From contig CAYMRD010000007.1 in assembly GCA_964392775.1 (NCBI GenBank), positions 67,516 through 131,515 of the forward strand: a stretch of 64,000 nt of DNA, given 5' to 3'. The notes below the pieces were generated by a model, which made no database searches, was not told the origin of the DNA, and saw only the letters and a list, made by a program, of their open reading frames with translations. The DNA comes from an uncultured Bifidobacteriaceae bacterium (GTDB lineage Bacteria > Bacteroidota > Bacteroidia > UKL13-3). Positions 7,548-16,346 of this stretch are shown here, piece by piece; the first letter of the stretch is position 1, and each line of letters begins with the position of its first letter. The position numbers and the translations under genes are program-made.

Positions 7548-7677
7548 GCTAACAGCACCTACACGCAAGCAGGGGGTTCGTGCTTCGCAGGACAGGAAAG
7601 TGCTAAATTTGAAGTTCAGTTCTTCGTAGGAAGTTCAGTGGTAAAAATCCCTGCCTGCGTGTAGCTGCAAACCGTTA
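7548..7677. repeat. MITE-like intergenic repeat, copy A, with ~25-bp imperfect terminal inverted repeats.
   Basis: The left end ctaacagcacctacacgcaagcaggg pairs with the reverse complement of ccctgcctgcgtgtagctgcaaaccgttag. The internal block aaatttgaagttcagttcttcgtaggaagttcagtggtaaaaatccc is shared with copy B. Confidence 0.65.
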
Positions 7678-10600
7678 GAAACTAAAATTACGTGCAGCTT
7701 TCAGTGGATTCAGCTTGTTGAGGTTGAGCGAAAAAGTAATGCGTTCGGTATAACGTTTGGCACCGCTTACACTACCCGGAATATTGCCTTTAAAGTAGTC
7801 GCTAATTTCGGATGATGTCATGATGGGGAAGTTGATGCGGAATACATCTCCGGGAAGTTTTATACTAACCCCGGAAGTGTATAAAATTTTCGGAGTGTAC
7901 TTGCTCACCATTTGGTTGGTATTGCCATCCATATAACTTTCGTTAGCGTTAATAAATGCGATATCGGCATAGAGTACCAATGGCAAAATACCCGGAACCG
8001 TGGTTTCAAAATTTACGCCTGTTGCCCATTTGTCGGATGTTACAGAAGGATACAGTTCCTTAAATTGCAATCCGCCAAACATCAACTGTTGTGCAAACAA
8101 GCTGTTGGATGTTACGGGATTTTCGCCACGGCCAAACTGTGATTGGTCAAAGGTATAATCAAACAAACCGGTATTGGCTCCGGCACGAAAATCGGCACGC
8201 CCATCTGAGTTCATGAGTGATTGCAGAAACACACCACCAAACCACCGAACCGTAAATCCTTTTTTAGGCTTTTCGTAATTCAAAAACCGGGTTGCTTCGG
8301 CCGTAAGTTTATGTGCCTGTGCGTTGGTGCTGATGTATTGATAGGTGATATTGTAATTGTATGGCTGCAATACTCGCTTTTGTTGTGAGGCAAAGGTGAG
8401 TTCGGCAAAGGTGCTGGCTCCACTAAGGGTATAAGCGGCACCGCGATTGCGTTCGCTGATGCTTACCACGCGGGCGGTTACACTGTTTTGTGCATCCGTG
8501 CGGGGATGGTGCTGTGCCAGTTGTGCGGTGATTCCTCCTTCGAGTTTGGTATAAGTTGTGGGCGTAAAATAATCGCTTGCAAACTGTGTTGCCTTCATCC
8601 ATGGAGTATAGCTGCGGGCCACTCCATACGATATAAAGCGGTGCTGCAGTTCAGCCGTTCCGGCTAAGTCTTTGGTGCCAAATGCGTACATTGGAGCCAG
8701 CACAAACTCAGTAGGTTTAGCCGGCATTACGCTGTTGTAAAACGCCATTCCCAACATGGTTTTGTTGTACAGGTTGGCACCTGCAATGGGTGTATAATAC
8801 ACTTGTTGCTTGTATGGATTTTCGGTATTGAGGAAGAGCGAAAACTCGGGCGGACGAACGGTTTTGAGAACACCCGAGGTGCGAATACTATTATTGGTTC
8901 GGTTGATGTCGGTAGTTGTTTCATAGGCATCCAGGCGTAGTTGCTGGTAATCGCCCGCAGGGAAACTAACCTGATTGTTTGCCGGCAAGCTGTCAAACCA
9001 AACCGTTTGAACGGCATTGTTGGCTTTCATTGCTGTAACACTGAACGGAGCATTATTGGATGAACGGTTTTTAAGGCGTATGGTATAGCCGTTACCTGTT
9101 TTGCGAATACCTTTTATTTTCCAATCCTGTTTGCGTGTTGTGGTCATCAAATCATTGAAAAACCAATCGAGGTTTTTGCCCGAAAACTGTTTGACATGGT
9201 CTGTAAAATCATCGGGCAACGGGTGTTTAAATTTCCAGTTTTCATAATAGCTCTGCATCATTGCATCAAAAATACTATCACCCAAATACCGTTGTAAATA
9301 ATGAAAAGCAGAGGAGGCTTTACCGTAAACGATAGCCCCATAATTATAATCGGTATAAGCTTCGGATGGCAGGAAACAGGCCTGATCTTCATTTTTACGG
9401 GCTCCAACCAGATAGCGGGTTTCCAGACCACGGTAGCCATCGCTGGCAAAGGCTCCTATATTTCCGGGTGTAAGTCGTTCATACGGCTTGATGGTTTCTG
9501 TTTCGGAGCTGCGGGTTTCATAGTAGTTGTTAATGCTCTCATCCATCCAGGGGTAAGCACGTTCGTTGCTTCCCAAAATACCATACAGCCAGTTATGTCC
9601 CACTTCATGAAACACAACCTGACGGTTTACTTCGGTAATATTGGTAATCATCGGGTATTCCATTCCTGCACCCGAAACCAATGGAGTAACAGCAACAGAG
9701 GCTTGTGAGTAAGGATATTCTCCAAGCATTGACGAATAATATAAAATTGCTGCATTAACCAGTTCGATGTTGGAGCGTTTAGGGTTTACCTGAAACCACC
9801 AGGTGGTAACACGGTTACGTGATTTTGGCAATACAACTTCACTGCGTTCAACCTGAAAACGTTTGTCGGCAAACCATGCAAAATCATGAACTCTGTCCTG
9901 CTTGTAATGCAGCGTTTTGGTTTTGTTTGATGAGGCAGGGAAATCTGCTGTTGGATTCGAGGTATTACTTTCTTTACTTTTTTCAAGCAGCCATTGTTTC
10001 TCCGATTCGTTTTGCAATTCACCGGTGGCGCCAACCACATAGTTTTCGGGCAAAGTGATATGCACATCAAACTTGCCAAACTCGCTGTAAAACTCACCTT
10101 GGTCGAGGTATGGCATCGGGTTCCATCCGTTAACATCGTATACCGCAGGTTTGGGATACCATTGCGTTACACAATAAAGTTGGTCCTGATGGCCCATACG
10201 CGAAACGATGGAAGGCAGCTTTACTTTAAAGGTGGTTGCAAGGCGTATTTTTTCACCGGGTTCAAGTGGTTTGCGCAGGGTGAGTTTCGCAATATCAATC
10301 TGTTCGGTGAGTTCCCATTTTACCGCAACCCAGTCGGCTAAAAAGTTGAGGGAATCAATATACCCGCGGTTTTCTTCGGCCATGTACAAAAAATCTGTTT
10401 TGCCGTTTTCAATCTGTTGTTTGGCAAATGCCGTGTTGGTGTTGCGGTAGGCATTGGGCCATAAATGCATATATATTTCGGTTAGTGCATTGGGTGAGTT
10501 GTTGGTATACAAGATGGTTTCGTTGCCGCGTAAGATGTGGTTCACATCATCCAGCTCAACATTAATGGCATACTCAACATCTTGCTGCCAGATGGCTTGT

Positions 10601-10683
10601 TTCATCTGTTGAGCAACTATTGAGAAAGGGAAAAGAAGCAGGCTCAAAAATCCTGTAAACAGTAAATGAATCATAGCGGCCAA
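7675..10683 (-). CDS. Secreted M1-family zinc metallopeptidase (aminopeptidase N-like).
   Basis: 1002 aa with a signal peptide. Contains the GAGMEYPM exopeptidase motif and the HEVGHNW zinc-binding HExxH, with downstream Glu. Lies 22 nt downstream of the usher-like gene. Confidence 0.8.
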   Translation of the reverse strand: MAAMIHLLFTGFLSLLLFPFSIVAQQMKQAIWQQDVEYAINVELDDVNHILRGNETILYTNNSPNALTEIYMHLWPNAYRNTNTAFAKQQIENGKTDFLYMAEENRGYIDSLNFLADWVAVKWELTEQIDIAKLTLRKPLEPGEKIRLATTFKVKLPSIVSRMGHQDQLYCVTQWYPKPAVYDVNGWNPMPYLDQGEFYSEFGKFDVHITLPENYVVGATGELQNESEKQWLLEKSKESNTSNPTADFPASSNKTKTLHYKQDRVHDFAWFADKRFQVERSEVVLPKSRNRVTTWWFQVNPKRSNIELVNAAILYYSSMLGEYPYSQASVAVTPLVSGAGMEYPMITNITEVNRQVVFHEVGHNWLYGILGSNERAYPWMDESINNYYETRSSETETIKPYERLTPGNIGAFASDGYRGLETRYLVGARKNEDQACFLPSEAYTDYNYGAIVYGKASSAFHYLQRYLGDSIFDAMMQSYYENWKFKHPLPDDFTDHVKQFSGKNLDWFFNDLMTTTRKQDWKIKGIRKTGNGYTIRLKNRSSNNAPFSVTAMKANNAVQTVWFDSLPANNQVSFPAGDYQQLRLDAYETTTDINRTNNSIRTSGVLKTVRPPEFSLFLNTENPYKQQVYYTPIAGANLYNKTMLGMAFYNSVMPAKPTEFVLAPMYAFGTKDLAGTAELQHRFISYGVARSYTPWMKATQFASDYFTPTTYTKLEGGITAQLAQHHPRTDAQNSVTARVVSISERNRGAAYTLSGASTFAELTFASQQKRVLQPYNYNITYQYISTNAQAHKLTAEATRFLNYEKPKKGFTVRWFGGVFLQSLMNSDGRADFRAGANTGLFDYTFDQSQFGRGENPVTSNSLFAQQLMFGGLQFKELYPSVTSDKWATGVNFETTVPGILPLVLYADIAFINANESYMDGNTNQMVSKYTPKILYTSGVSIKLPGDVFRINFPIMTSSEISDYFKGNIPGSVSGAKRYTERITFSLNLNKLNPLKAARNFSF

Positions 10684-10705: not shown

Positions 10706-13660
10706 TTAGCGTTTGCGAGGTGCTGCCGGTTTTGGGCTTGTTACCGGAGCCGCAGGATTTACGGTTTCAGGGGTGGGGAATTGTTTTTTAATAACTTTTC
10801 TTCTTTTCTCCATGATGAGAAATGAGATGATCATTCCATCCGATTCACGCGTAGCTTCTACTTCATAATTGTTGCGGGCAAGCTTGTAGCGCGATCCCAA
10901 TATTCCTTCATCCATGGTAATGGTATATTTACCATAAGGCACATACAACTCGAAGCTGCCATTGAAGTCGGTTAATACGCTGTATACTTTGTTGCCGGAT
11001 GCCACTACCCGGATACGCCCCAGGTCAAATGGATCATCCGCATCGGCATTGATAGCATCGCGGTCAATATTGATTTTACCCTTAATCCTGACACCTCTGA
11101 CAAAAGGAACAAAGTACTGTCCTGATTTCATTACCATTACCGTATCCTCAATATTTGCAAACCAGCCATTAAACCGGTCGAGTGAGAATGCTGAAATCCG
11201 GTGAAGACCACCATGCATATTGTTTATTTTTGCATCTCCCTCTGCATTGCTAATCACTTCTTCATCACCTATCCGAATGACAATGTTCTCAATTGATTTC
11301 TCCGATTTATCTTTGATTCCGTTTCCATTAATATCAAAAAAGGCCACAAATTCCATATCATGAACCGTACTCTTTTTGAAAGGAACAGGCAAGGCAAACT
11401 CTTTACGGATACCTGCTGCAATAAAAGTATTTTGCGTGGTGAGGCGTTCGGCTTCATCAGCCGTTGCTTGTTGTGTGGAATAATTGTTTTTGAGTGCAAT
11501 ACCCGACAAAATATTATAGTTAAAGCCAAGCCGGAACCGCCAGCCATCATTGGTAAAATAATAGATATCGGGGAACAGGGTGATATTGTGTTGTTTGAAT
11601 ATATTGTTAAATGAATAATTGAAGCCCGTTTGTATCATAACCTTGCGGTTAGCAAACAAGTATTGGTGTTGTAGAGAAGAAGTAAACAACTGCTGGTTGG
11701 AGGTGTTTATTTGCGTTGCCAACTGTGGAGTGTAGCCATAAATACCAACCAGGTAGCGGGCATTTAGAGAAACTGTTTTATAAAAAGCAAGAGCTGTCCA
11801 CTGCAAAAAAGTTGTTGTTTCGGGATTAGGGATATGGGTTGGCAGATTGGCTCCGCCTTCAACGGTTGTTGAAAACCGGGTATTGGTTTTGGGATTAAAC
11901 TGGTTGAAGTTAACTCCTGCACCGCGAATCTGGTAAGTGACAATACTCTGTTGAAACAAATTGGCAAACACGTATGGTTGAACGCTTTTGTTCTTAAAAG
12001 AACGGTTCACCATAAACTGGTTTGTAAGTGAGCCTGTTTTGATGTGGCCAACAATCATGGTGGTGCTTTGGTTGTAGTTGTTTACAATGGTAGCACTCCA
12101 CTTATCCGTAAACATAAGGCGCGTACGGTGATTGTAAAAGAGCCGCTCGATATTAGAGTTGGCATATTCCCGCGTATTGTACCCAACGCTATGATTAATA
12201 GCAAGTTTGCCTCTGATAAAATTTCCATTATAGTTAGTCATTCCAAAATAACCAAAGGTGTTTACCGGTAGCGGGCCCAAATTATTCAGCTGGTTCCAGG
12301 TGTTGGAGATACTGAAATTAACAGACTGGGTTCGAAGGAAATTTATAGATACCCTGCTGTTAAGAGCTGTGGTTTTAACTCCGGTAAACTTATTGTCTGA
12401 CTGGCCTATTTCGAAACGGGCTTTGTTTTGTTTGAAATATTTAACATCGTAAGCAAAACCATACGAGCGCAAGGCTTCTTGGTCAAACCGGTCTTTTCGG
12501 GTTACAATATAACCCGTAACCTGATGGCTGCGGTTTATCATAAGGCTCGATTTAACCCCTTGTCCAAACCCCTGAATACCCAAAAACCCGCCATTGATGT
12601 ACCCTAACTGGACATTTCCCTTTGAGCCAAAATATCCGATATAATAATTGTTGTTGGTTAGAAATTGGTTGTATTGATTGTTGGTGGAACTACCTTGAAA
12701 ATTATAGATGAGTTGACGGGTTGCGTCCAGTTGTGCAACACCCCTTAAATTCAAAGTGGCAAACGTAACCTCGTCAAAAAGATTCGACAGATTGTAATCA
12801 ACAATCAAAGGAAGGTGTGAAAACGAATTGTTATCGGCCCTGGTATTGTCCGAAAGTTTTCTGAACTGAAACCTTTGCCCGGTTTGAAAGGCTCCCGGCT
12901 GGCCAAAATCAGGCTCCTCGCTGGTCACCAATAAATTAAAGCTCCGGTTTTCGTTTATGCCGGTTGGGCGGTAATTTTCAAGGTCAATTCTGCTTTGATT
13001 GCGCTCACCCTGAATCAACTGATACGAAAAATTAAAGGTAGTATCCTGATAGGGGTTAAGGGTAAAATTAACCGGCTGAGTGAGTGTCCGTGTATTGGCA
13101 GAATCTCTTACTTCTCCGAGCAGGCTCATATTGTTCATGTTCAGAACCATAGGCTGCCTTTCGGAGCCGGTATTTAATATATTTACATCAAACCGAATTC
13201 TGTTCTCATCATTTTTAAAATAAATTTTTGTTCCGCTTTCAGTGCTCATACTCCAGCTTGTTTTCTTTTCAGTATGAGCCCAAAACAGGTCATTGGCCAA
13301 AGCCTCGCCTCTCTGGCCCACAATAAAAGCAGAAAGCATAAAACGATTGTTTCCGGTCAAATCGCCCGAAGGAATAAATCGGAAAGGCAGAAAAAGCGAA
13401 TCTCCGGGGGCTATGGTATAGCCGTCCTTAATTCGGGAAATTTGTTTCCAACCGTATGGGAAATCAAGATTGATATTAAATAAAACAGGTTCTGAAGAAG
13501 TGTTTTCAATGCGCAATACATTGGAGAGGATTTCACCCGGGGTAATCATATACTCTTTGCCAATGAAATGTGCGGTAATGGGTGAAGTGGACTGCGCATG
13601 TAAGCAGTTGGTCAATGCTAATAGATAGTAAATCGTGCCTAAAAGCAGACTCTTTTTCAT
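10706..13660 (-). CDS. Large outer-membrane protein, candidate fimbrial usher.
   Basis: 984 aa with a signal peptide. An N-terminal ~100-aa soluble domain precedes a long N/Q/S/T/Y/F-rich segment typical of beta-barrels. The C-terminal region has transthyretin/CarboxypepD_reg-like beta-sandwich blocks (RIRVVASGNKVYSVLTDFNGSFELYVPYGKYTITMDE), as in usher C-terminal domains. Start overlaps the stop of the upstream subunit gene (ATGA). Confidence 0.4.
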   Translation of the reverse strand: MKKSLLLGTIYYLLALTNCLHAQSTSPITAHFIGKEYMITPGEILSNVLRIENTSSEPVLFNINLDFPYGWKQISRIKDGYTIAPGDSLFLPFRFIPSGDLTGNNRFMLSAFIVGQRGEALANDLFWAHTEKKTSWSMSTESGTKIYFKNDENRIRFDVNILNTGSERQPMVLNMNNMSLLGEVRDSANTRTLTQPVNFTLNPYQDTTFNFSYQLIQGERNQSRIDLENYRPTGINENRSFNLLVTSEEPDFGQPGAFQTGQRFQFRKLSDNTRADNNSFSHLPLIVDYNLSNLFDEVTFATLNLRGVAQLDATRQLIYNFQGSSTNNQYNQFLTNNNYYIGYFGSKGNVQLGYINGGFLGIQGFGQGVKSSLMINRSHQVTGYIVTRKDRFDQEALRSYGFAYDVKYFKQNKARFEIGQSDNKFTGVKTTALNSRVSINFLRTQSVNFSISNTWNQLNNLGPLPVNTFGYFGMTNYNGNFIRGKLAINHSVGYNTREYANSNIERLFYNHRTRLMFTDKWSATIVNNYNQSTTMIVGHIKTGSLTNQFMVNRSFKNKSVQPYVFANLFQQSIVTYQIRGAGVNFNQFNPKTNTRFSTTVEGGANLPTHIPNPETTTFLQWTALAFYKTVSLNARYLVGIYGYTPQLATQINTSNQQLFTSSLQHQYLFANRKVMIQTGFNYSFNNIFKQHNITLFPDIYYFTNDGWRFRLGFNYNILSGIALKNNYSTQQATADEAERLTTQNTFIAAGIRKEFALPVPFKKSTVHDMEFVAFFDINGNGIKDKSEKSIENIVIRIGDEEVISNAEGDAKINNMHGGLHRISAFSLDRFNGWFANIEDTVMVMKSGQYFVPFVRGVRIKGKINIDRDAINADADDPFDLGRIRVVASGNKVYSVLTDFNGSFELYVPYGKYTITMDEGILGSRYKLARNNYEVEATRESDGMIISFLIMEKRRKVIKKQFPTPETVNPAAPVTSPKPAAPRKR

Positions 13661-14283
13661 ATAGCCTCGGTTAAAACGTAACGTACCTTAAGCTGATAAA
13701 TACCGCTCTTGACTCCAACACCCGGCTGTAAGCGGTAGTCTATATCAAAAGAGTATTCATTATAATTATTTGTGGAGTTCCCCGGACCATTTACGTTGGT
13801 TATGCACGAACCTGCAGGAACGGTGATTCCTGTATTTGAAATAACCATAATTGGCAGGCCAACATTTATAGGCACATTAAAGAAGTTATTGCCTGTTTGG
13901 GAAGTGTTGCAATTATTTGTAATGCGCAATTGAAGCAAATCAACTTTGGGCGGAGTGCCTGATGATGATTGTGAATACAGAGATTCCCATTGATCATTAG
14001 GAGTGCTGCCATTACCATTTTCGATATATACTAAAAGATTCCAACGGCAATCGGGATTGTGGCTGATGGAATTGCTGACATTTACTTTTAAGCGCGTAGC
14101 CCCGTTTTGGGTAATTCCTCCGAGGTATTTCCCAAACGAATCATAAGTGAAATCCAGGTTTGTTTGGCCAACAGTGGTCAGCGTCACCACATCACAATAC
14201 TGTGCCTTAACATTGCTAACCAGTATTGGAAAGCAAAGCACTCCGATACAAAAGTTAATAAATAGTGTGTTTAGGCGTTGCAA
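13657..14283 (-). CDS. Secreted pilus-subunit candidate 2 (SCPU/Csu-pilin-like).
   Basis: 208 aa with a signal peptide. The N-terminal strand after the signal peptide alternates hydrophobic residues (VVTLTTV). Contains NLDFTYDSFGKYLGGITQNGATRLKV, paralogous to subunit 1. Ends ...KSGIYQLKVRYVLTEAI, resembling the SCPU terminal GtYtdtvtvtv block. Confidence 0.45.
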   Translation of the reverse strand: MQRLNTLFINFCIGVLCFPILVSNVKAQYCDVVTLTTVGQTNLDFTYDSFGKYLGGITQNGATRLKVNVSNSISHNPDCRWNLLVYIENGNGSTPNDQWESLYSQSSSGTPPKVDLLQLRITNNCNTSQTGNNFFNVPINVGLPIMVISNTGITVPAGSCITNVNGPGNSTNNYNEYSFDIDYRLQPGVGVKSGIYQLKVRYVLTEAI

Positions 14284-14303
14284 TTTTTGTTTCGGCTTTT
14301 TAA

Positions 14304-14337
14304 CATGAAGAAGAGCCGCTGAGGACTCTTCTTCATG
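14304..14337 (-). promoter_or_regulatory. 12-bp perfect stem-loop between the two subunit genes.
   Basis: catgaagaagag-ccgctgagga-ctcttcttcatg. No adjacent U-run on the transcribed strand. Confidence 0.4.
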
Positions 14338-14358
14338 AGGGTAAGTATCAAGAGGGGG

Positions 14359-15144
14359 TTATTGATCTTCAAGAATCATGTATTGAACATACATAGTGTA
14401 AACACCAGGTTGTGCGTACGATCCTGCAGAGTTAGCCGAAACGAGATCCTGAGCGGTTGTCCCGTCAGCAGAGAAAGCCATTGGGAAAATTGCAGGCAAT
14501 CCCGGAACGATACGGTAGTCGATAGAATAGTAGTAGTCGCTGGTTAAGGCATTTGCAGTTAAATAACTACCACCCGCAACACCATCTGCTCCGGTTGCTG
14601 TTGTTCCCGCATGGCCGGCAATGTATTTATGAGAGGCTGTAGGAGGAGTTCCCGCATTTGCAGGGTCAACATATATGCTGTTTGAACCTGCAGGCGATGC
14701 TACCGGAGGAAATGCAGAACTGTAATCAGCATACGTACCGGAGGCAGCTGTGGCGTTTGCGTTAGCAGTTGTTTGACGCAACTCAAGCGCGCTTAATGGC
14801 AACTGGTTGGTCGCTCCACCTGATCCACCTGTTCCGTACTTAATTTGCTGATCCCACATACCCGGAGCAACGTTACCGTTTGAGCGGGCAATCGCATACA
14901 AATCCCAGTTTACGGTTGAACTTACTTTTAAAATAGTCGCTCCATACTTGGTAATACCACCGTAGTACTCTTGGATGTCGTCAAAGGTGAAATCAATTTG
15001 GTTTGGAGTAGACATGTTAAGCTGAAGGATAGGTTGTAAGTCCATTGTAATGGTTACATCCTTTTCATCTTTCAACTGAGCAAAGGCTGTTGTTGACGCG
15101 AGCATGGCAATTCCGGCCATGGTCAGCAGTCTGTTGTTTTTCAT
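14359..15144 (-). CDS. Secreted pilus-subunit candidate 1 (SCPU/Csu-pilin-like) with a Gly/Ala/Thr/Ser/Pro-rich insertion.
   Basis: 261 aa with a signal peptide. N-terminal VTITMDLQPILQL has alternating hydrophobic residues. Contains IDFTFDDIQEYYGGITKYGATILKV. Ends ...AQPGVYTMYVQYMILEDQ, an SCPU-type terminus. Carries a ~90-aa low-complexity insertion. Confidence 0.45.
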   Translation of the reverse strand: MKNNRLLTMAGIAMLASTTAFAQLKDEKDVTITMDLQPILQLNMSTPNQIDFTFDDIQEYYGGITKYGATILKVSSTVNWDLYAIARSNGNVAPGMWDQQIKYGTGGSGGATNQLPLSALELRQTTANANATAASGTYADYSSAFPPVASPAGSNSIYVDPANAGTPPTASHKYIAGHAGTTATGADGVAGGSYLTANALTSDYYYSIDYRIVPGLPAIFPMAFSADGTTAQDLVSANSAGSYAQPGVYTMYVQYMILEDQ

Positions 15145-15371
15145 ATAATAGGTATAAGTTTACTACACTAAGGTAGTAAAAAAACACAGACTGTATTATT
15201 CAAACGGCTGGATTTTGGTGTAAACGGATGTTTTTGCGTGTAAATGTTAATATCTATTGAAATTTATCTCGCTAAAAACCAATGCATTAAATGTCATTTT
15301 ACCGTAAAATTGGCCTTTCAAAAAAAATAGTGCGTGGATTGTCTACTCCTTAGTACACAAAGGAGGGTGTT

Positions 15372-16223
15372 TTAGTCAACTTTAAACTCCAGTTCTGCGG
15401 CCTCAACCACATCTTTATTGCCGTAATCCAATACGCCAACAGCAGAGTAGTTGCCCTTTTCAAGGTTTTCGGGCAGGGCAAATAGGTAGTTCCGGGTATA
15501 ACCGGGTAATACCACAAATCGTTTAACCATCAGTTTCTGCTGTTTTCCTGTAGAAAGATTGGTAAGCTCAACATAAGAAACGCAAGAAGCAATACCGTCA
15601 CCGGTATTTTGCAATGTAATTTCAATATTCCGTTGGTTTTTTTCTTTCCCGCTCTGGAGCTGAAAGTTTTTAATTTCTACTTTGTTGTTTTGAACCGTAG
15701 GCGGATTTTGGTACAGGTATACGCCAAAACCAAATGACGGAACTACACCCAACGAAATTTTCTTGTCGCCTCCGGTGTTATCAAGCGCTTCACGCTGTTT
15801 TTTTTCCTCAATCAATAAGATGCTCCAGGCTGCACGATTTGAAAAACCGGTATCGGGAATAGATAGGGTAATATTTACTTTTTGAATTTCACCCGGTTTA
15901 AGTTCAAAAAAAGTTGGTGCAACATTAAGCCAATTTGACATTCCGTATTTGGAGGTTCCGGAATCACCGAACGTTGTTTTTCCGGCATTGTTCATGTCGA
16001 AGTCTTTGACAGATGCCGAGAAAGAGCGTTTTACAAGGGTTTCATTGGTTACCTTTACTTCGTATGTTTTGCTCTCACCGGGTTTCAGGTTAAAGTTTAA
16101 ATGAGAGGGAGAAACAGCAACACCAACATCTTTTAACGCTGCCGTATCTTTTGTTTGGGCCGAAATTTTTGTGAGCGGAATAAAGGTTGCGATTAACAAC
16201 AACGAAATAATTTTGTTTTTCAT
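15372..16223 (-). CDS. Periplasmic PapD-like (Ig-fold) pilus chaperone candidate.
   Basis: About 283 aa counted from MKNKIISLLL, with a signal peptide. An N-domain-like strand VSPSHLNFNLKPGESKTYEVKVTN has the pattern v.P..l.f...ge...l.v.N. A C-terminal second beta-domain is present. First gene of the cluster. The ORF-track start is 16253. Confidence 0.45.
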   Translation of the reverse strand: MKNKIISLLLIATFIPLTKISAQTKDTAALKDVGVAVSPSHLNFNLKPGESKTYEVKVTNETLVKRSFSASVKDFDMNNAGKTTFGDSGTSKYGMSNWLNVAPTFFELKPGEIQKVNITLSIPDTGFSNRAAWSILLIEEKKQREALDNTGGDKKISLGVVPSFGFGVYLYQNPPTVQNNKVEIKNFQLQSGKEKNQRNIEITLQNTGDGIASCVSYVELTNLSTGKQQKLMVKRFVVLPGYTRNYLFALPENLEKGNYSAVGVLDYGNKDVVEAAELEFKVD

Positions 16224-16346
16224 GGATACAAGGTGGATATGAGTCAGCAGCAATAATAAGCCTTCCGGTCGTTCTGTTCAAACAATCTCAATTTGTGTAT
16301 GAGTTTGGGAATCAGAATAATCACAATGAAGTGTTTATAACCTGTA

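Follow-up and report, generated by a model that had tools for sequence, protein, structure and literature searches.

The window analysed here, a stretch of 64,000 nucleotides, carries four genes on its minus strand. All four are present as co-oriented open reading frames where the first-pass annotation had placed them, in the order chaperone, subunit, subunit, usher that it had described:

15372..16223, minus strand: chaperone gene, 283 amino acids from an ATG (293 amino acids from a TTG at position 16253)
14359..15144, minus strand: sub1 gene, putative major fibre subunit, 261 amino acids
14304..14337, minus strand: intercistronic hairpin of 14 bp, directly after the sub1 stop codon
13657..14283, minus strand: sub2 gene, putative minor subunit, 208 amino acids
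10706..13660, minus strand: gene of the usher-like outer-membrane protein, 984 amino acids

The annotated ATGA overlap between the stop codon of sub2 and the start codon of the 984-residue gene is present (...GCTATATGAAAAAG). As read from the translations, each of the four proteins begins with a signal peptide that ends in A-x-A and is followed by Q, and the lipobox cysteine is absent. The gene order is real and conserved among related loci: 75 of 81 keep the four genes in the same order and on the same strand, and the other six are interrupted by contig ends, so that the arrangement holds in 75 of the 75 complete loci. The four-gene grouping is therefore far from chance. Its carriers are almost all Bacteroidota, with loci labelled Chitinophaga/Chitinophagales, Sphingobacteriales, Flavobacteriales and Bacteroidales, between which the flanking genes differ; no further conserved accessory gene was found across the related loci.

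The hairpin that follows sub1 (dG -21.8 kcal/mol, z -5.4) is kept at the same site in related loci, where the median stem is 14 bp and 96% of stems reach at least 10 bp, as against 12 to 23% downstream of other genes or within coding regions. This conservation suggests an element that is likely to act as an attenuator or mRNA stabiliser, raising the ratio of sub1 to sub2 and usher expression.

Of the four genes, sub1 shows the highest conservation, and it is the one that ties the locus to a known structure. In a phmmer search of PDB sequences, its residues 25-259 aligned with residues 3-236 of 9ikk_A (E = 7e-42) and 9ikj_A (E = 4.7e-40), and a profile built from 51 sub1 homologues matched these chains at E = 7.8e-66. 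They are the TLP-1a/b proteins (PDB 9IKJ/9IKK), solved by cryo-EM from pond-water fibrils (CryoSeek, Wang et al., PNAS 2024, PMC11494351). These environmental fibrils are hollow and 8 nm wide, and are made of four separate strand-exchanged chains: polymerisation is driven by N-terminal donor-strand exchange, in which strand beta1 sits in the cleft of another protomer, n+4 donating to n (PMC11494351). The corresponding parts of sub1 are:

15079..15144, minus strand: signal peptide, with cleavage after A22
15031..15078, minus strand: mature N-terminal extension, residues 23-38, QLKDEKDVTITMDLQP, predicted donor strand

Residues 23-38 are nearly invariant in the 51 homologues and match the N-terminal end of TLP-1a/b in the alignments. 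Both proteins share, as mature N-terminus after signal-peptide cleavage, the pattern Q-L-x-x-E-x-(D/N)-V-T-(I/V)-T-M-D-L-Q-P, as well as a C-terminal strand PGVYT..V.(Y/F)...E. As judged from sequence, sub1 is clearly a full-length homologue of the TLP-1a/b protomer, donor strand included, and by this homology its extension is predicted to engage in donor-strand exchange. The exchange found in the homologue is of the n+4 type, not the n+1 to n type. Identity is only about 38% for sub1 of the window and at most 44% for any locus retrieved, and the pond fibrils therefore do not come from the organism of the window. The TLP-1a/b residue identities are themselves approximate, since the PDB entries take them from the density map, with a family member serving as reference for model building (PMC11494351).

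The TLP-1 paper gives no organism, metagenome or mass-spectrometry match, gene neighbourhood, chaperone or pore; in AFDB, a Flavobacteriales protein without annotation came closest (PMC11494351). Relative to that paper the operon is new, and it probably provides what was missing for the fibrils: their genes, the machinery that assembles them and the phylum they come from. Two orphan structures, published without organism, gene or assembly route, would thus probably find their place in a Bacteroidota four-gene cassette, of which cultivable carriers exist, among them Lutibacter sp. Hel_I_33_5, Polaribacter sp. MF5-112 and Pseudotenacibaculum haliotis KCTC 52127.

The first-pass annotation had instead seen an archaic, sigma-type cluster, with subunit termini like those of SCPU or Csu pilins. 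An ordinary Csu/CupE-like member of that family is very improbable, being contradicted at the profile level. No Pfam match was obtained for sub1 or sub2 (E ≤ 1), and the 51 homologues of sub1 yielded none at E ≤ 10; SCPU (PF05229), in particular, matched none of these proteins, even at that looser threshold. The subunits share the fold of TLP-1, and when the authors of the TLP-1 structures compared this fold with experimental structures, CupE among them, they reported nothing that matched it significantly (PMC11494351). The other components point the same way: the PapD family of Pfam did not match the chaperone, nor did Usher, PapC_N or PapC_C match the 984-residue protein or its homologues. 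When the chaperone was compared with known ones, CfaA, WxLIP and FimC scored above CsuC, which is not the closest of them.

The surface-filament systems expected in Bacteroidota are type V pili and T9SS, and the phylum is thus what speaks for reading the cluster as a type V pilus locus of the FimA/Mfa type, or its products as T9SS cargo. The sequences contradict this and leave it hardly any credence: the signal peptides, with no Cys at +1 after A-x-A, carry no lipoprotein signal, at their C-termini the subunits have a conserved ...LLEDQ in place of a T9SS C-terminal domain, no FimA/Mfa or T9SS family matched in Pfam or NCBIfam, and the mature protein carries its donor strand at the N-terminus, like TLP-1.

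The proposal that the two small proteins are paralogous was borne out (phmmer E = 5e-9; hhalign probability 99.4%, E = 5e-21). The same alignment revealed an 11-residue gap in sub2 opposite DEKDVTITMDL, and the sub2 profile matches the TLP-1 chains (E = 1e-6) from TLP residue 17 onward only. Donor strands with alternating hydrophobic residues had been proposed for both subunits: the proposal stands for sub1 (DVTITMDLQP) and falls for sub2, which is without those approximately 11 residues. The homologue alignment also shows four invariant cysteines in sub2 (C30, C79, C125 and C160). Moreover, natural fusions of about 450 amino acids exist, in which a sub2-like domain is followed by a linker of about 14 residues, then by a donor strand and finally by a body like that of sub1; they fill the sub2 slot in two loci of the same operon type (L083 and L084). 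Because sub2 misses the N-terminal donor strand and such fusions occur in nature, it is likely to be the distal, tip or initiator, subunit. The earlier statement that the cluster has no tip gene is thus not supported.

The predicted domains of the chaperone are the following:

residues 1-23: signal peptide
residues 35-141: Ig-like domain 1
residues 142-164: conserved, low-confidence loop between the two domains
residues 165-282: Ig-like domain 2

There is no C-terminal transmembrane helix, and the last strand of domain 2 is the end of the protein. As modelled, it is a periplasmic PapD-like or WxLIP-like two-domain protein, and the PapD-like Ig fold assigned to it at first was recovered with both its domains. 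By sequence it is a member of the WxLIP (DUF916) family: it passes the Pfam cut-off for WxLIP_PGBD, the WxLIP N-terminal domain (PF06030), and has WxLIP of E. faecium as a homologue. The second WxLIP domain, WxLIP_HBD (PF11797), had no Pfam match in it, while the E. faecium control protein matched both. Residues 142-164 and the invariant FGxxxYQNPP that follows are a candidate region for donor-strand complementation. Alignment of domain 1 with the usher N-terminal domain reached an hhalign probability of 51% only. Searches of PDB sequences with the chaperone, single or as a profile, returned C2-domain and ferredoxin-reductase matches, which we rejected as spurious.

This family membership raises the question of whether the operon could be the diderm counterpart of the WxL surface complex of Gram-positive bacteria, in which the WxLIP-like protein would tether two surface proteins and no polymer would form. 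The match to WxLIP_PGBD and the homology to the E. faecium protein fit such a scheme; the WxL clusters, too, combine one WxLIP with two partner proteins, and AF2 predicts a WxLIP strand inserting into WxL (PMC10599100). The partners differ, however. W-x-L triplets are present in the subunits (NWDLYA, RWNLLV), but a WxL identity was rejected at the sequence level: the WxL domain (PF13731) matched neither sub1 nor sub2, and the sub1 profile aligned with a bona fide WxL protein at an hhalign probability of 1.2%. Compared with the clusters of Bacillota (Enterococcus, Lactiplantibacillus, Listeria), the operon has TLP-1-type pilins in place of WxL-domain proteins, no WxLIP_HBD match, no membrane helix at the chaperone C-terminus, no LPXTG protein, and in addition a giant outer-membrane protein. 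Given these differences, and since a sub1 homologue, TLP-1a/b, forms a polymer in nature, we regard a non-polymeric complex as very improbable. Conversely, because the operon chaperone is homologous to WxLIP, the comparison suggests that the WxL surface clusters of enterococci, listeriae and lactobacilli may use a PapD-type strand-complementing chaperone.

In the structure model of the outer-membrane protein, an N-terminal part, a barrel and two C-terminal domains follow one another, with a disordered, basic and proline-rich tail:

13016..13588, minus strand: two N-terminal Ig-like domains, residues 25-215
11387..12946, minus strand: predicted beta-barrel region of about 26-28 strands, residues 239-758
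10808..11365, minus strand: two C-terminal transthyretin-like beta-sandwiches, residues 766-951

When this model was compared with the PDB by Foldseek, the best nine matches were full-length FimD (E = 6e-13 to 8e-11) and PapC ranked 12 and 13, ahead of other barrels by 5 to 7 orders of magnitude, with TM-scores that are low (0.22-0.32). The usher-like architecture that had been assigned to the protein is thus supported at the level of models. The transthyretin-like C-terminal domain, part of the same assignment, is weak in the window protein (CarboxypepD_reg, E = 9e-4) and is found in 31 of 36 homologues, with a best E of 7e-16. The secondary-structure map shows no evident plug domain, and more than 24 strands appear to make up the barrel. 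The usher profile returned nothing among PDB sequences at E ≤ 10, and a wider search with it gave an essentially unchanged set of 32 proteins, with one swapped.

A pore of this kind could also be passive. Like TasA fibres and archaeal cannulae, the fibre might assemble by itself in the extracellular space, with no usher to catalyse the step, the 283-residue protein acting only as a periplasmic holdase and the 984-residue protein as a passive channel for export or an anchor at the cell surface. We consider this unlikely, given that full-length FimD and PapC are the top Foldseek matches, that the pore gene is translationally coupled and invariably linked to sub2, and that periplasmic-type Ig and transthyretin domains flank the barrel on both sides, in the fashion of ushers.

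Our preferred reading, to which we give a probability of roughly 70%, is that the four genes form a pilus operon of chaperone-usher-like type, representing a very divergent and hitherto unclassified class that is almost confined to Bacteroidota, with a TLP-1-type fibre as product. Within the literature searched, this assembly system is not described for Bacteroidota, as had been supposed. The assembly that we propose is as follows. Sec would export all four proteins, and signal peptidase I would cut before the conserved Gln, to judge from their sequences. In the periplasm, the chaperone would fill the open beta-sandwich cleft of the subunits. Sub2, with a cleft but no donor strand, would start the fibre and end at its distal tip, as the missing strand and the natural fusions suggest. 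Sub1 would be made in excess, owing to the conserved hairpin after its gene, and its N-terminal strand (DVTITMDL) would enter the cleft of an earlier subunit, a step that is experimental for TLP-1a/b (n+4 to n). Finally, the 984-residue protein would be the assembly and secretion platform, its Ig-like ends serving as usher N- and C-terminal domains and its barrel as the pore; its architecture, its Foldseek likeness to FimD and PapC and its strict genetic linkage argue for this role.

Chaperone-usher pili (Fim, Pap, CFA/I, Csu/CupE) share with this operon a periplasmic chaperone of two Ig domains and PapD fold, open Ig-like subunits completed by the N-terminal strand of another subunit, a donor-strand-less subunit fitting the tip position, a large predicted outer-membrane barrel with beta-sandwich domains of periplasmic type on either side (FimD and PapC being the top Foldseek matches), and organisation in a single operon with a hairpin after the major-subunit gene. 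The differences are as marked: the three component types share no sequence profile with their counterparts (Pfam, NCBIfam), the chaperone is a member of WxLIP/DUF916, a larger barrel is predicted (about 26-28 strands against 24) with no plug evident, the order is chaperone, major, minor, pore, and the host phylum is Bacteroidota. The chaperone-usher principle would thereby reach into a phylum for which type V pili and T9SS are thought to be the mainstay, by means of components without a sequence-profile match to those of Pap or Fim.

The fibre itself raises a mechanistic problem. Chaperone-usher pili are single chains joined n+1 to n, whereas the homologous TLP-1a/b form four chains, joined n+4 to n, in a hollow 8-nm tube. 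Against the usher model, it may be argued that a single usher-type pore handling subunits one at a time would not obviously yield such a four-chain fibre.

More tentatively, the TLP-1 operon, the Gram-positive WxL/WxLIP clusters and perhaps a cluster on a Deinococcus plasmid may belong to one ancient lineage of strand complementation assisted by a chaperone, apart from the proteobacterial chaperone-usher clades; we find this possible, though doubtful. The Deinococcus cluster (L085) has a homologous chaperone (E = 2e-19), and its small proteins and a 1090-residue protein gave no match to the sub1, sub2 and usher profiles beyond the C-terminal domain. If a single lineage exists, WxLIP would be a membrane-tethered PapD-type chaperone and not a peptidoglycan- or host-binding protein, and the 984-residue pore would represent a novel type of usher, one that builds a four-chain hollow fibre, for example via an usher oligomer or four chaperone-capped subunits held together.

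Downstream of the operon, the window contains two further features:

7675..10683, minus strand: clade-specific gene of a secreted 1002-residue protein with a peptidase M1 domain (HEVGH; Pfam Peptidase_M1, E = 1.4e-12)
7653..7672: terminator-like hairpin, following the M1 gene

The M1 gene is possibly co-transcribed with the operon. Only the closest loci, L003-L020, carry it immediately after the operon; their labels are Chitinophaga, Sphingobacteriales, Bacteroidia or Bacteroidetes. It is missing from the Flavobacteriales loci and lies outside the conserved operon core.

The four-gene operon is best read as encoding a chaperone-usher-like pathway. This reading draws on the gene set and its conservation, the fold of the chaperone, the homology of the major subunit to a strand-exchanged fibre, a strand missing from its paralogue, and natural fusion proteins. 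The four minus-strand reading frames reported in the first-pass annotation match the window exactly, as does the ATGA shared by the stop codon of sub2 and the start of the pore gene.

Features of the operon, in order of reading
15372..16223, minus strand: chaperone gene, 283 aa when started at the ATG (293 aa when started at a TTG further upstream)
15320..15365, minus strand: 6-bp hairpin CTCCTT...AAGGAG just past the chaperone stop, with a T8 run 18 nt beyond
14359..15144, minus strand: sub1, major fibre subunit, 261 aa
14304..14337, minus strand: 14-bp hairpin after the sub1 stop codon (dG -21.8, z -5.4)
13657..14283, minus strand: sub2, paralogue of sub1, 208 aa
10706..13660, minus strand: pore gene, usher-like outer-membrane protein, 984 aa

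The database copy of the chaperone is the 283-aa form. All four translations begin with a signal peptide ending A-x-A|Q, without a lipobox cysteine; such ends fit the signal peptidase I "Q-rule" that Bochtler et al. reportedly described in Bacteroidetes in 2018. The window holds a single copy of the system and no second one.

One genome per species was scanned, the best 80 of 174 loci with a chaperone relative were retained, and one further Lutibacter locus was added. Among these 81 loci, 75 carry all four genes in identical order (chaperone, sub1, sub2, pore) and strand, the remaining six being interrupted by contig ends. The arrangement is no chance juxtaposition, and because clades differ in their flanking genes, the four genes are the unit. 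Carriers are Bacteroidota (with labels such as Chitinophaga/Chitinophagales, Sphingobacteriales, Bacteroidales MAGs, and Flavobacteriales, including Polaribacter, Lutibacter, Flavicella and Pseudotenacibaculum), apart from one Chlorobiota MAG and one short contig in a Comamonas bin. The organism labels of the closest loci (L002, L003, L005) look doubtful: one locus lies on a 3.2-kb contig binned as 'Comamonas sp.', while others come from MAGs labelled 'Chitinophaga pinensis' with a chaperone identity of just 68-77%.

The hairpin 3' of sub1 recurs in related loci, with a median stem of 14 bp. In 96% of cases the stem reaches at least 10 bp; the figure is 12% downstream of the chaperone gene, 23% downstream of the pore gene and 17% within coding sequence. 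A T-run follows the hairpin in 31 loci. Such an element would be expected where a major subunit has to be made in larger amounts than the minor subunit and the pore encoded behind it. Since the 227-nt gap between chaperone and sub1 contains the 6-bp hairpin and T8 run, the chaperone and sub1-sub2-pore may be separate transcription units in the window; a strong hairpin after the chaperone gene is not conserved in the other loci. On the same strand, 22 nt downstream of the pore gene, 7675..10683 encodes a secreted protein of 1002 aa that carries a peptidase M1 domain (HEVGH). Its last ~450 aa have no family assignment and finish with ...NFSF, a terminus resembling those of outer-membrane proteins; past this gene, at 7653..7672, lies a terminator-like hairpin. 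The M1 gene adjoins the operon in the closest loci only (L003-L020, labelled Chitinophaga, Sphingobacteriales, Bacteroidia and Bacteroidetes) and is absent beside it in Flavobacteriales loci.

The chaperone had been called a PapD-like Ig-fold protein, which holds for the fold and not for the sequence family. Its AlphaFold2 model (53 homologues, mean pLDDT 85.8) consists of two beta-sandwiches, at residues 35-141 and 165-282, and of a connecting loop (142-164) that is conserved and modelled with low confidence. Structure comparison places CfaA, the CFA/I chaperone, at the top (the two values of the comparison being 13.7 and 184), then EfmWxLIP1 (9I1Y; 13.3, 161), FimC (13.0, 176), SafB (12.8, 176), CupB2 (12.6, 166), CsuC (12.5, 171), EcpB (12.1, 165), YadV (11.8, 171) and PapD (11.0, 182); single PapD-like/MSP domains are also listed. 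In Pfam, the one match over its curated cut-off is WxLIP_PGBD (DUF916; 29.7 bits versus 27.3, residues 39-132), and profile-profile alignment to a genuine WxLIP of E. faecium, which matches both PF06030 and PF11797, gives 97.1% probability (E 5.7e-11, residues 36-178). The chaperone is thus a WxLIP/DUF916 member within the PapD-like fold. It differs from WxLIP proteins, which have PF11797 and a C-terminal membrane helix, in that neither was found by Pfam or in the translation. This membership is of interest in view of an AF2 prediction by Hassan et al. (PMC10599100), in which a disordered WxLIP hairpin becomes a strand completing the beta-sandwich of its WxL partner, much like donor-strand complementation.

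Neither sub1 nor sub2 has a Pfam or NCBIfam match. In a search of PDB sequences, the sole matches of sub1 are 9ikk_A (E 7e-42) and 9ikj_A (E 4.7e-40), its residues 25-259 aligning with 3-236 of the chains, and a profile of 51 homologues matches these chains with E 7.8e-66. The entries, 9IKJ and 9IKK, are TLP-1a and TLP-1b, and by sequence comparison sub1 is a homologue of their protomer. Its mature N-terminus, QLKDEKDVTITMDLQP, is almost invariant across the family and aligns with that of the fibril chains. Identity is ~38% for sub1 of the window and at most 44% for any locus compared; these values are soft at residue level, since the chain sequences were derived from the density, the family member A0A2M8AA21 serving as building reference. 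An exhaustive HMMER search of 1.84 billion cluster representatives returned 135 proteins at E<=1e-3 and 49 at E<=1e-30: the family is small.

TLP-1a/b are hollow helical fibrils, 8 nm wide, which Wang et al. (PMC11494351) recovered from filtered Tsinghua Lotus Pond water and resolved to 3.2 and 3.5 Å. Their authors, whose fold match came from an automatically built model with no sequence input, obtained no match by mass spectrometry or in a metagenome, identified no source species, and called them "potentially uncategorized bacterial pili". Their text is silent on gene neighbourhood, chaperone and usher, words of this kind occurring in the reference list only, and a 2025 follow-up still has the fibrils as "likely from uncharacterized bacteria". 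In the searchable literature, we found no other paper linking TLP-1a/b to such an operon, and no description of the operon, its machinery or its phylum assignment. The cluster had been put forward as a candidate of the archaic (sigma) type, that of Csu and CupE; we reject this, as an SCPU domain is absent and CsuC is not the nearest chaperone. A type V pilus and T9SS cargo were likewise rejected as identities. The fibre is, as far as homology tells, a member of the TLP-1 family, whose structure is known, and we rate the operon as a divergent chaperone-usher-like class.

Sub2 is a paralogue of sub1 (phmmer E 5e-9; hhalign 99.4%), and the two have in common the motifs F-x-F-D..Y.GGIT, (C/S)-W-x-L, N-E-Y-x-F-x-I-D-Y-R-I-x-P-G and P-G-x-Y-x-hydrophobic. 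In their alignment, sub2 has an 11-residue gap exactly opposite DEKDVTITMDL of sub1, and its profile aligns to the TLP-1 chains from residue 17 onward only. An invariant Cys, one of four in sub2, lies near its start, a few residues past the cleavage site. A subunit with an acceptor cleft and no donor strand can only stand at the first-assembled end of a strand-exchanged chain, the place that tip subunits occupy in chaperone-usher pili; sub2 is therefore probably the distal subunit. The exhaustive search also returned fusion proteins of about 420-457 aa: a sub2-like domain comes first, then a linker of ~14 residues and a donor-strand segment (for example FTLEIEIQPILQL), and last a sub1-like body. 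Engineered self-complemented pilins have the same topology. One fusion gene (related locus L084, 2899..4233) occupies the sub2 slot of a chaperone/sub1/fusion/pore operon, another (L083, 2635..4014) immediately precedes the pore gene, and the proteins P0194, P0203, P0206 and P0214 are of this kind. As independent support, these fusions argue for a sub2 cleft that accepts a strand of the sub1 type. With the missing donor strand, they make the earlier statement that the cluster has no tip gene probably wrong, "tip/initiator" being safer than "adhesin" since sub2 has no separate lectin domain.

The AF2 model of the pore protein (32 sequences, pLDDT 82.2, pTM 0.50) predicts the following layout.

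Predicted domains of the pore protein
residues 28-129 and 136-215: two N-terminal beta-sandwiches
residues 239-758: extended series of some 26-28 strands of transmembrane type
residues 766-866 and 884-951: two C-terminal beta-sandwiches
thereafter: disordered basic tail

The transthyretin-like C-terminal domain noted at first pass is real: SdrD_B matches 33 of 36 homologues and CarboxypepD_reg 31 of 36 (best E 7e-16), and SpaA prealbumin-like domains match as well. Two structure searches rank their matches differently. Foldseek against the PDB puts nine full-length FimD chains first (E 5.8e-13 to 8e-11, 760-840 aligned columns), then PapC (E 1.9e-8 and 3.7e-8), with TonB-dependent receptors from ~1e-6, at low TM-scores (0.22-0.32); the strand map of the model shows no insertion of the size of a plug. 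Among solved multi-domain outer-membrane proteins, the model thus most resembles ushers, and its barrel is probably larger than theirs. The Usher, PapC_N and PapC_C profiles match none of the 36 homologues, and the pore profile matches no PDB sequence. What stands of the original usher assignment is therefore the architecture and the genetic position; the protein is predicted to be usher-like, homology to PapC/FimD being unproven. The first N-terminal Ig-like domain (residues 25-116) weakly matches chaperone domain 1 (hhalign probability 51%, E 1.5e-4), and MSP/FixG_C/NPCBM_assoc matches occur in a few pore homologues, likewise in the chaperone; this likeness may reflect a shared origin or a mere shared fold class. 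In Lutibacter and Polaribacter the pore-like protein is much longer, 1418-1779 aa versus a median of 996 (L001 12389..16645; L021 3691..8109; L042 12367..16884; L054 12367..17706).

In the proposed pathway, Sec would export all four proteins, the chaperone would cap the clefts of sub1 and sub2, sub2 would initiate, and sub1 would be added by donor-strand exchange at an outer-membrane platform, the presumed role of the pore protein. In TLP-1, exchange from n+4 to n means that the 8-nm tube is wound from four separate chains, each with its own strand exchange (PMC11494351). FimD, in contrast, adds one subunit to one chain through one pore, and a four-chain fibre is not obviously obtained in this way. 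Several pores might cooperate, the platform might hold four chaperone-capped ends at once, or chains might join after export. The same geometry keeps alive an account in which subunits leave through a passive channel and self-assemble; we regard it as unlikely, and usher-like assembly remains the best-supported reading.

A tblastn search of plasmids with the chaperone found a cousin cluster on the Deinococcus sp. AB2017081 plasmid NZ_CP140100.1 (L085, 6869..12554), and two further Deinococcus plasmids also match. In the AB2017081 cluster, the chaperone homologue (272 aa, profile E 2e-19) is encoded together with two hypothetical proteins, of 293 and 181 aa, and with a protein of 1090 aa, annotated 'carboxypeptidase-like regulatory domain', that has an Ig-like N-terminus and a CarboxypepD_reg C-terminus. 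Despite the small proteins having no detectable similarity to sub1 or sub2, the occurrence of such a cluster in another diderm phylum hints at a lineage extending beyond Bacteroidota.
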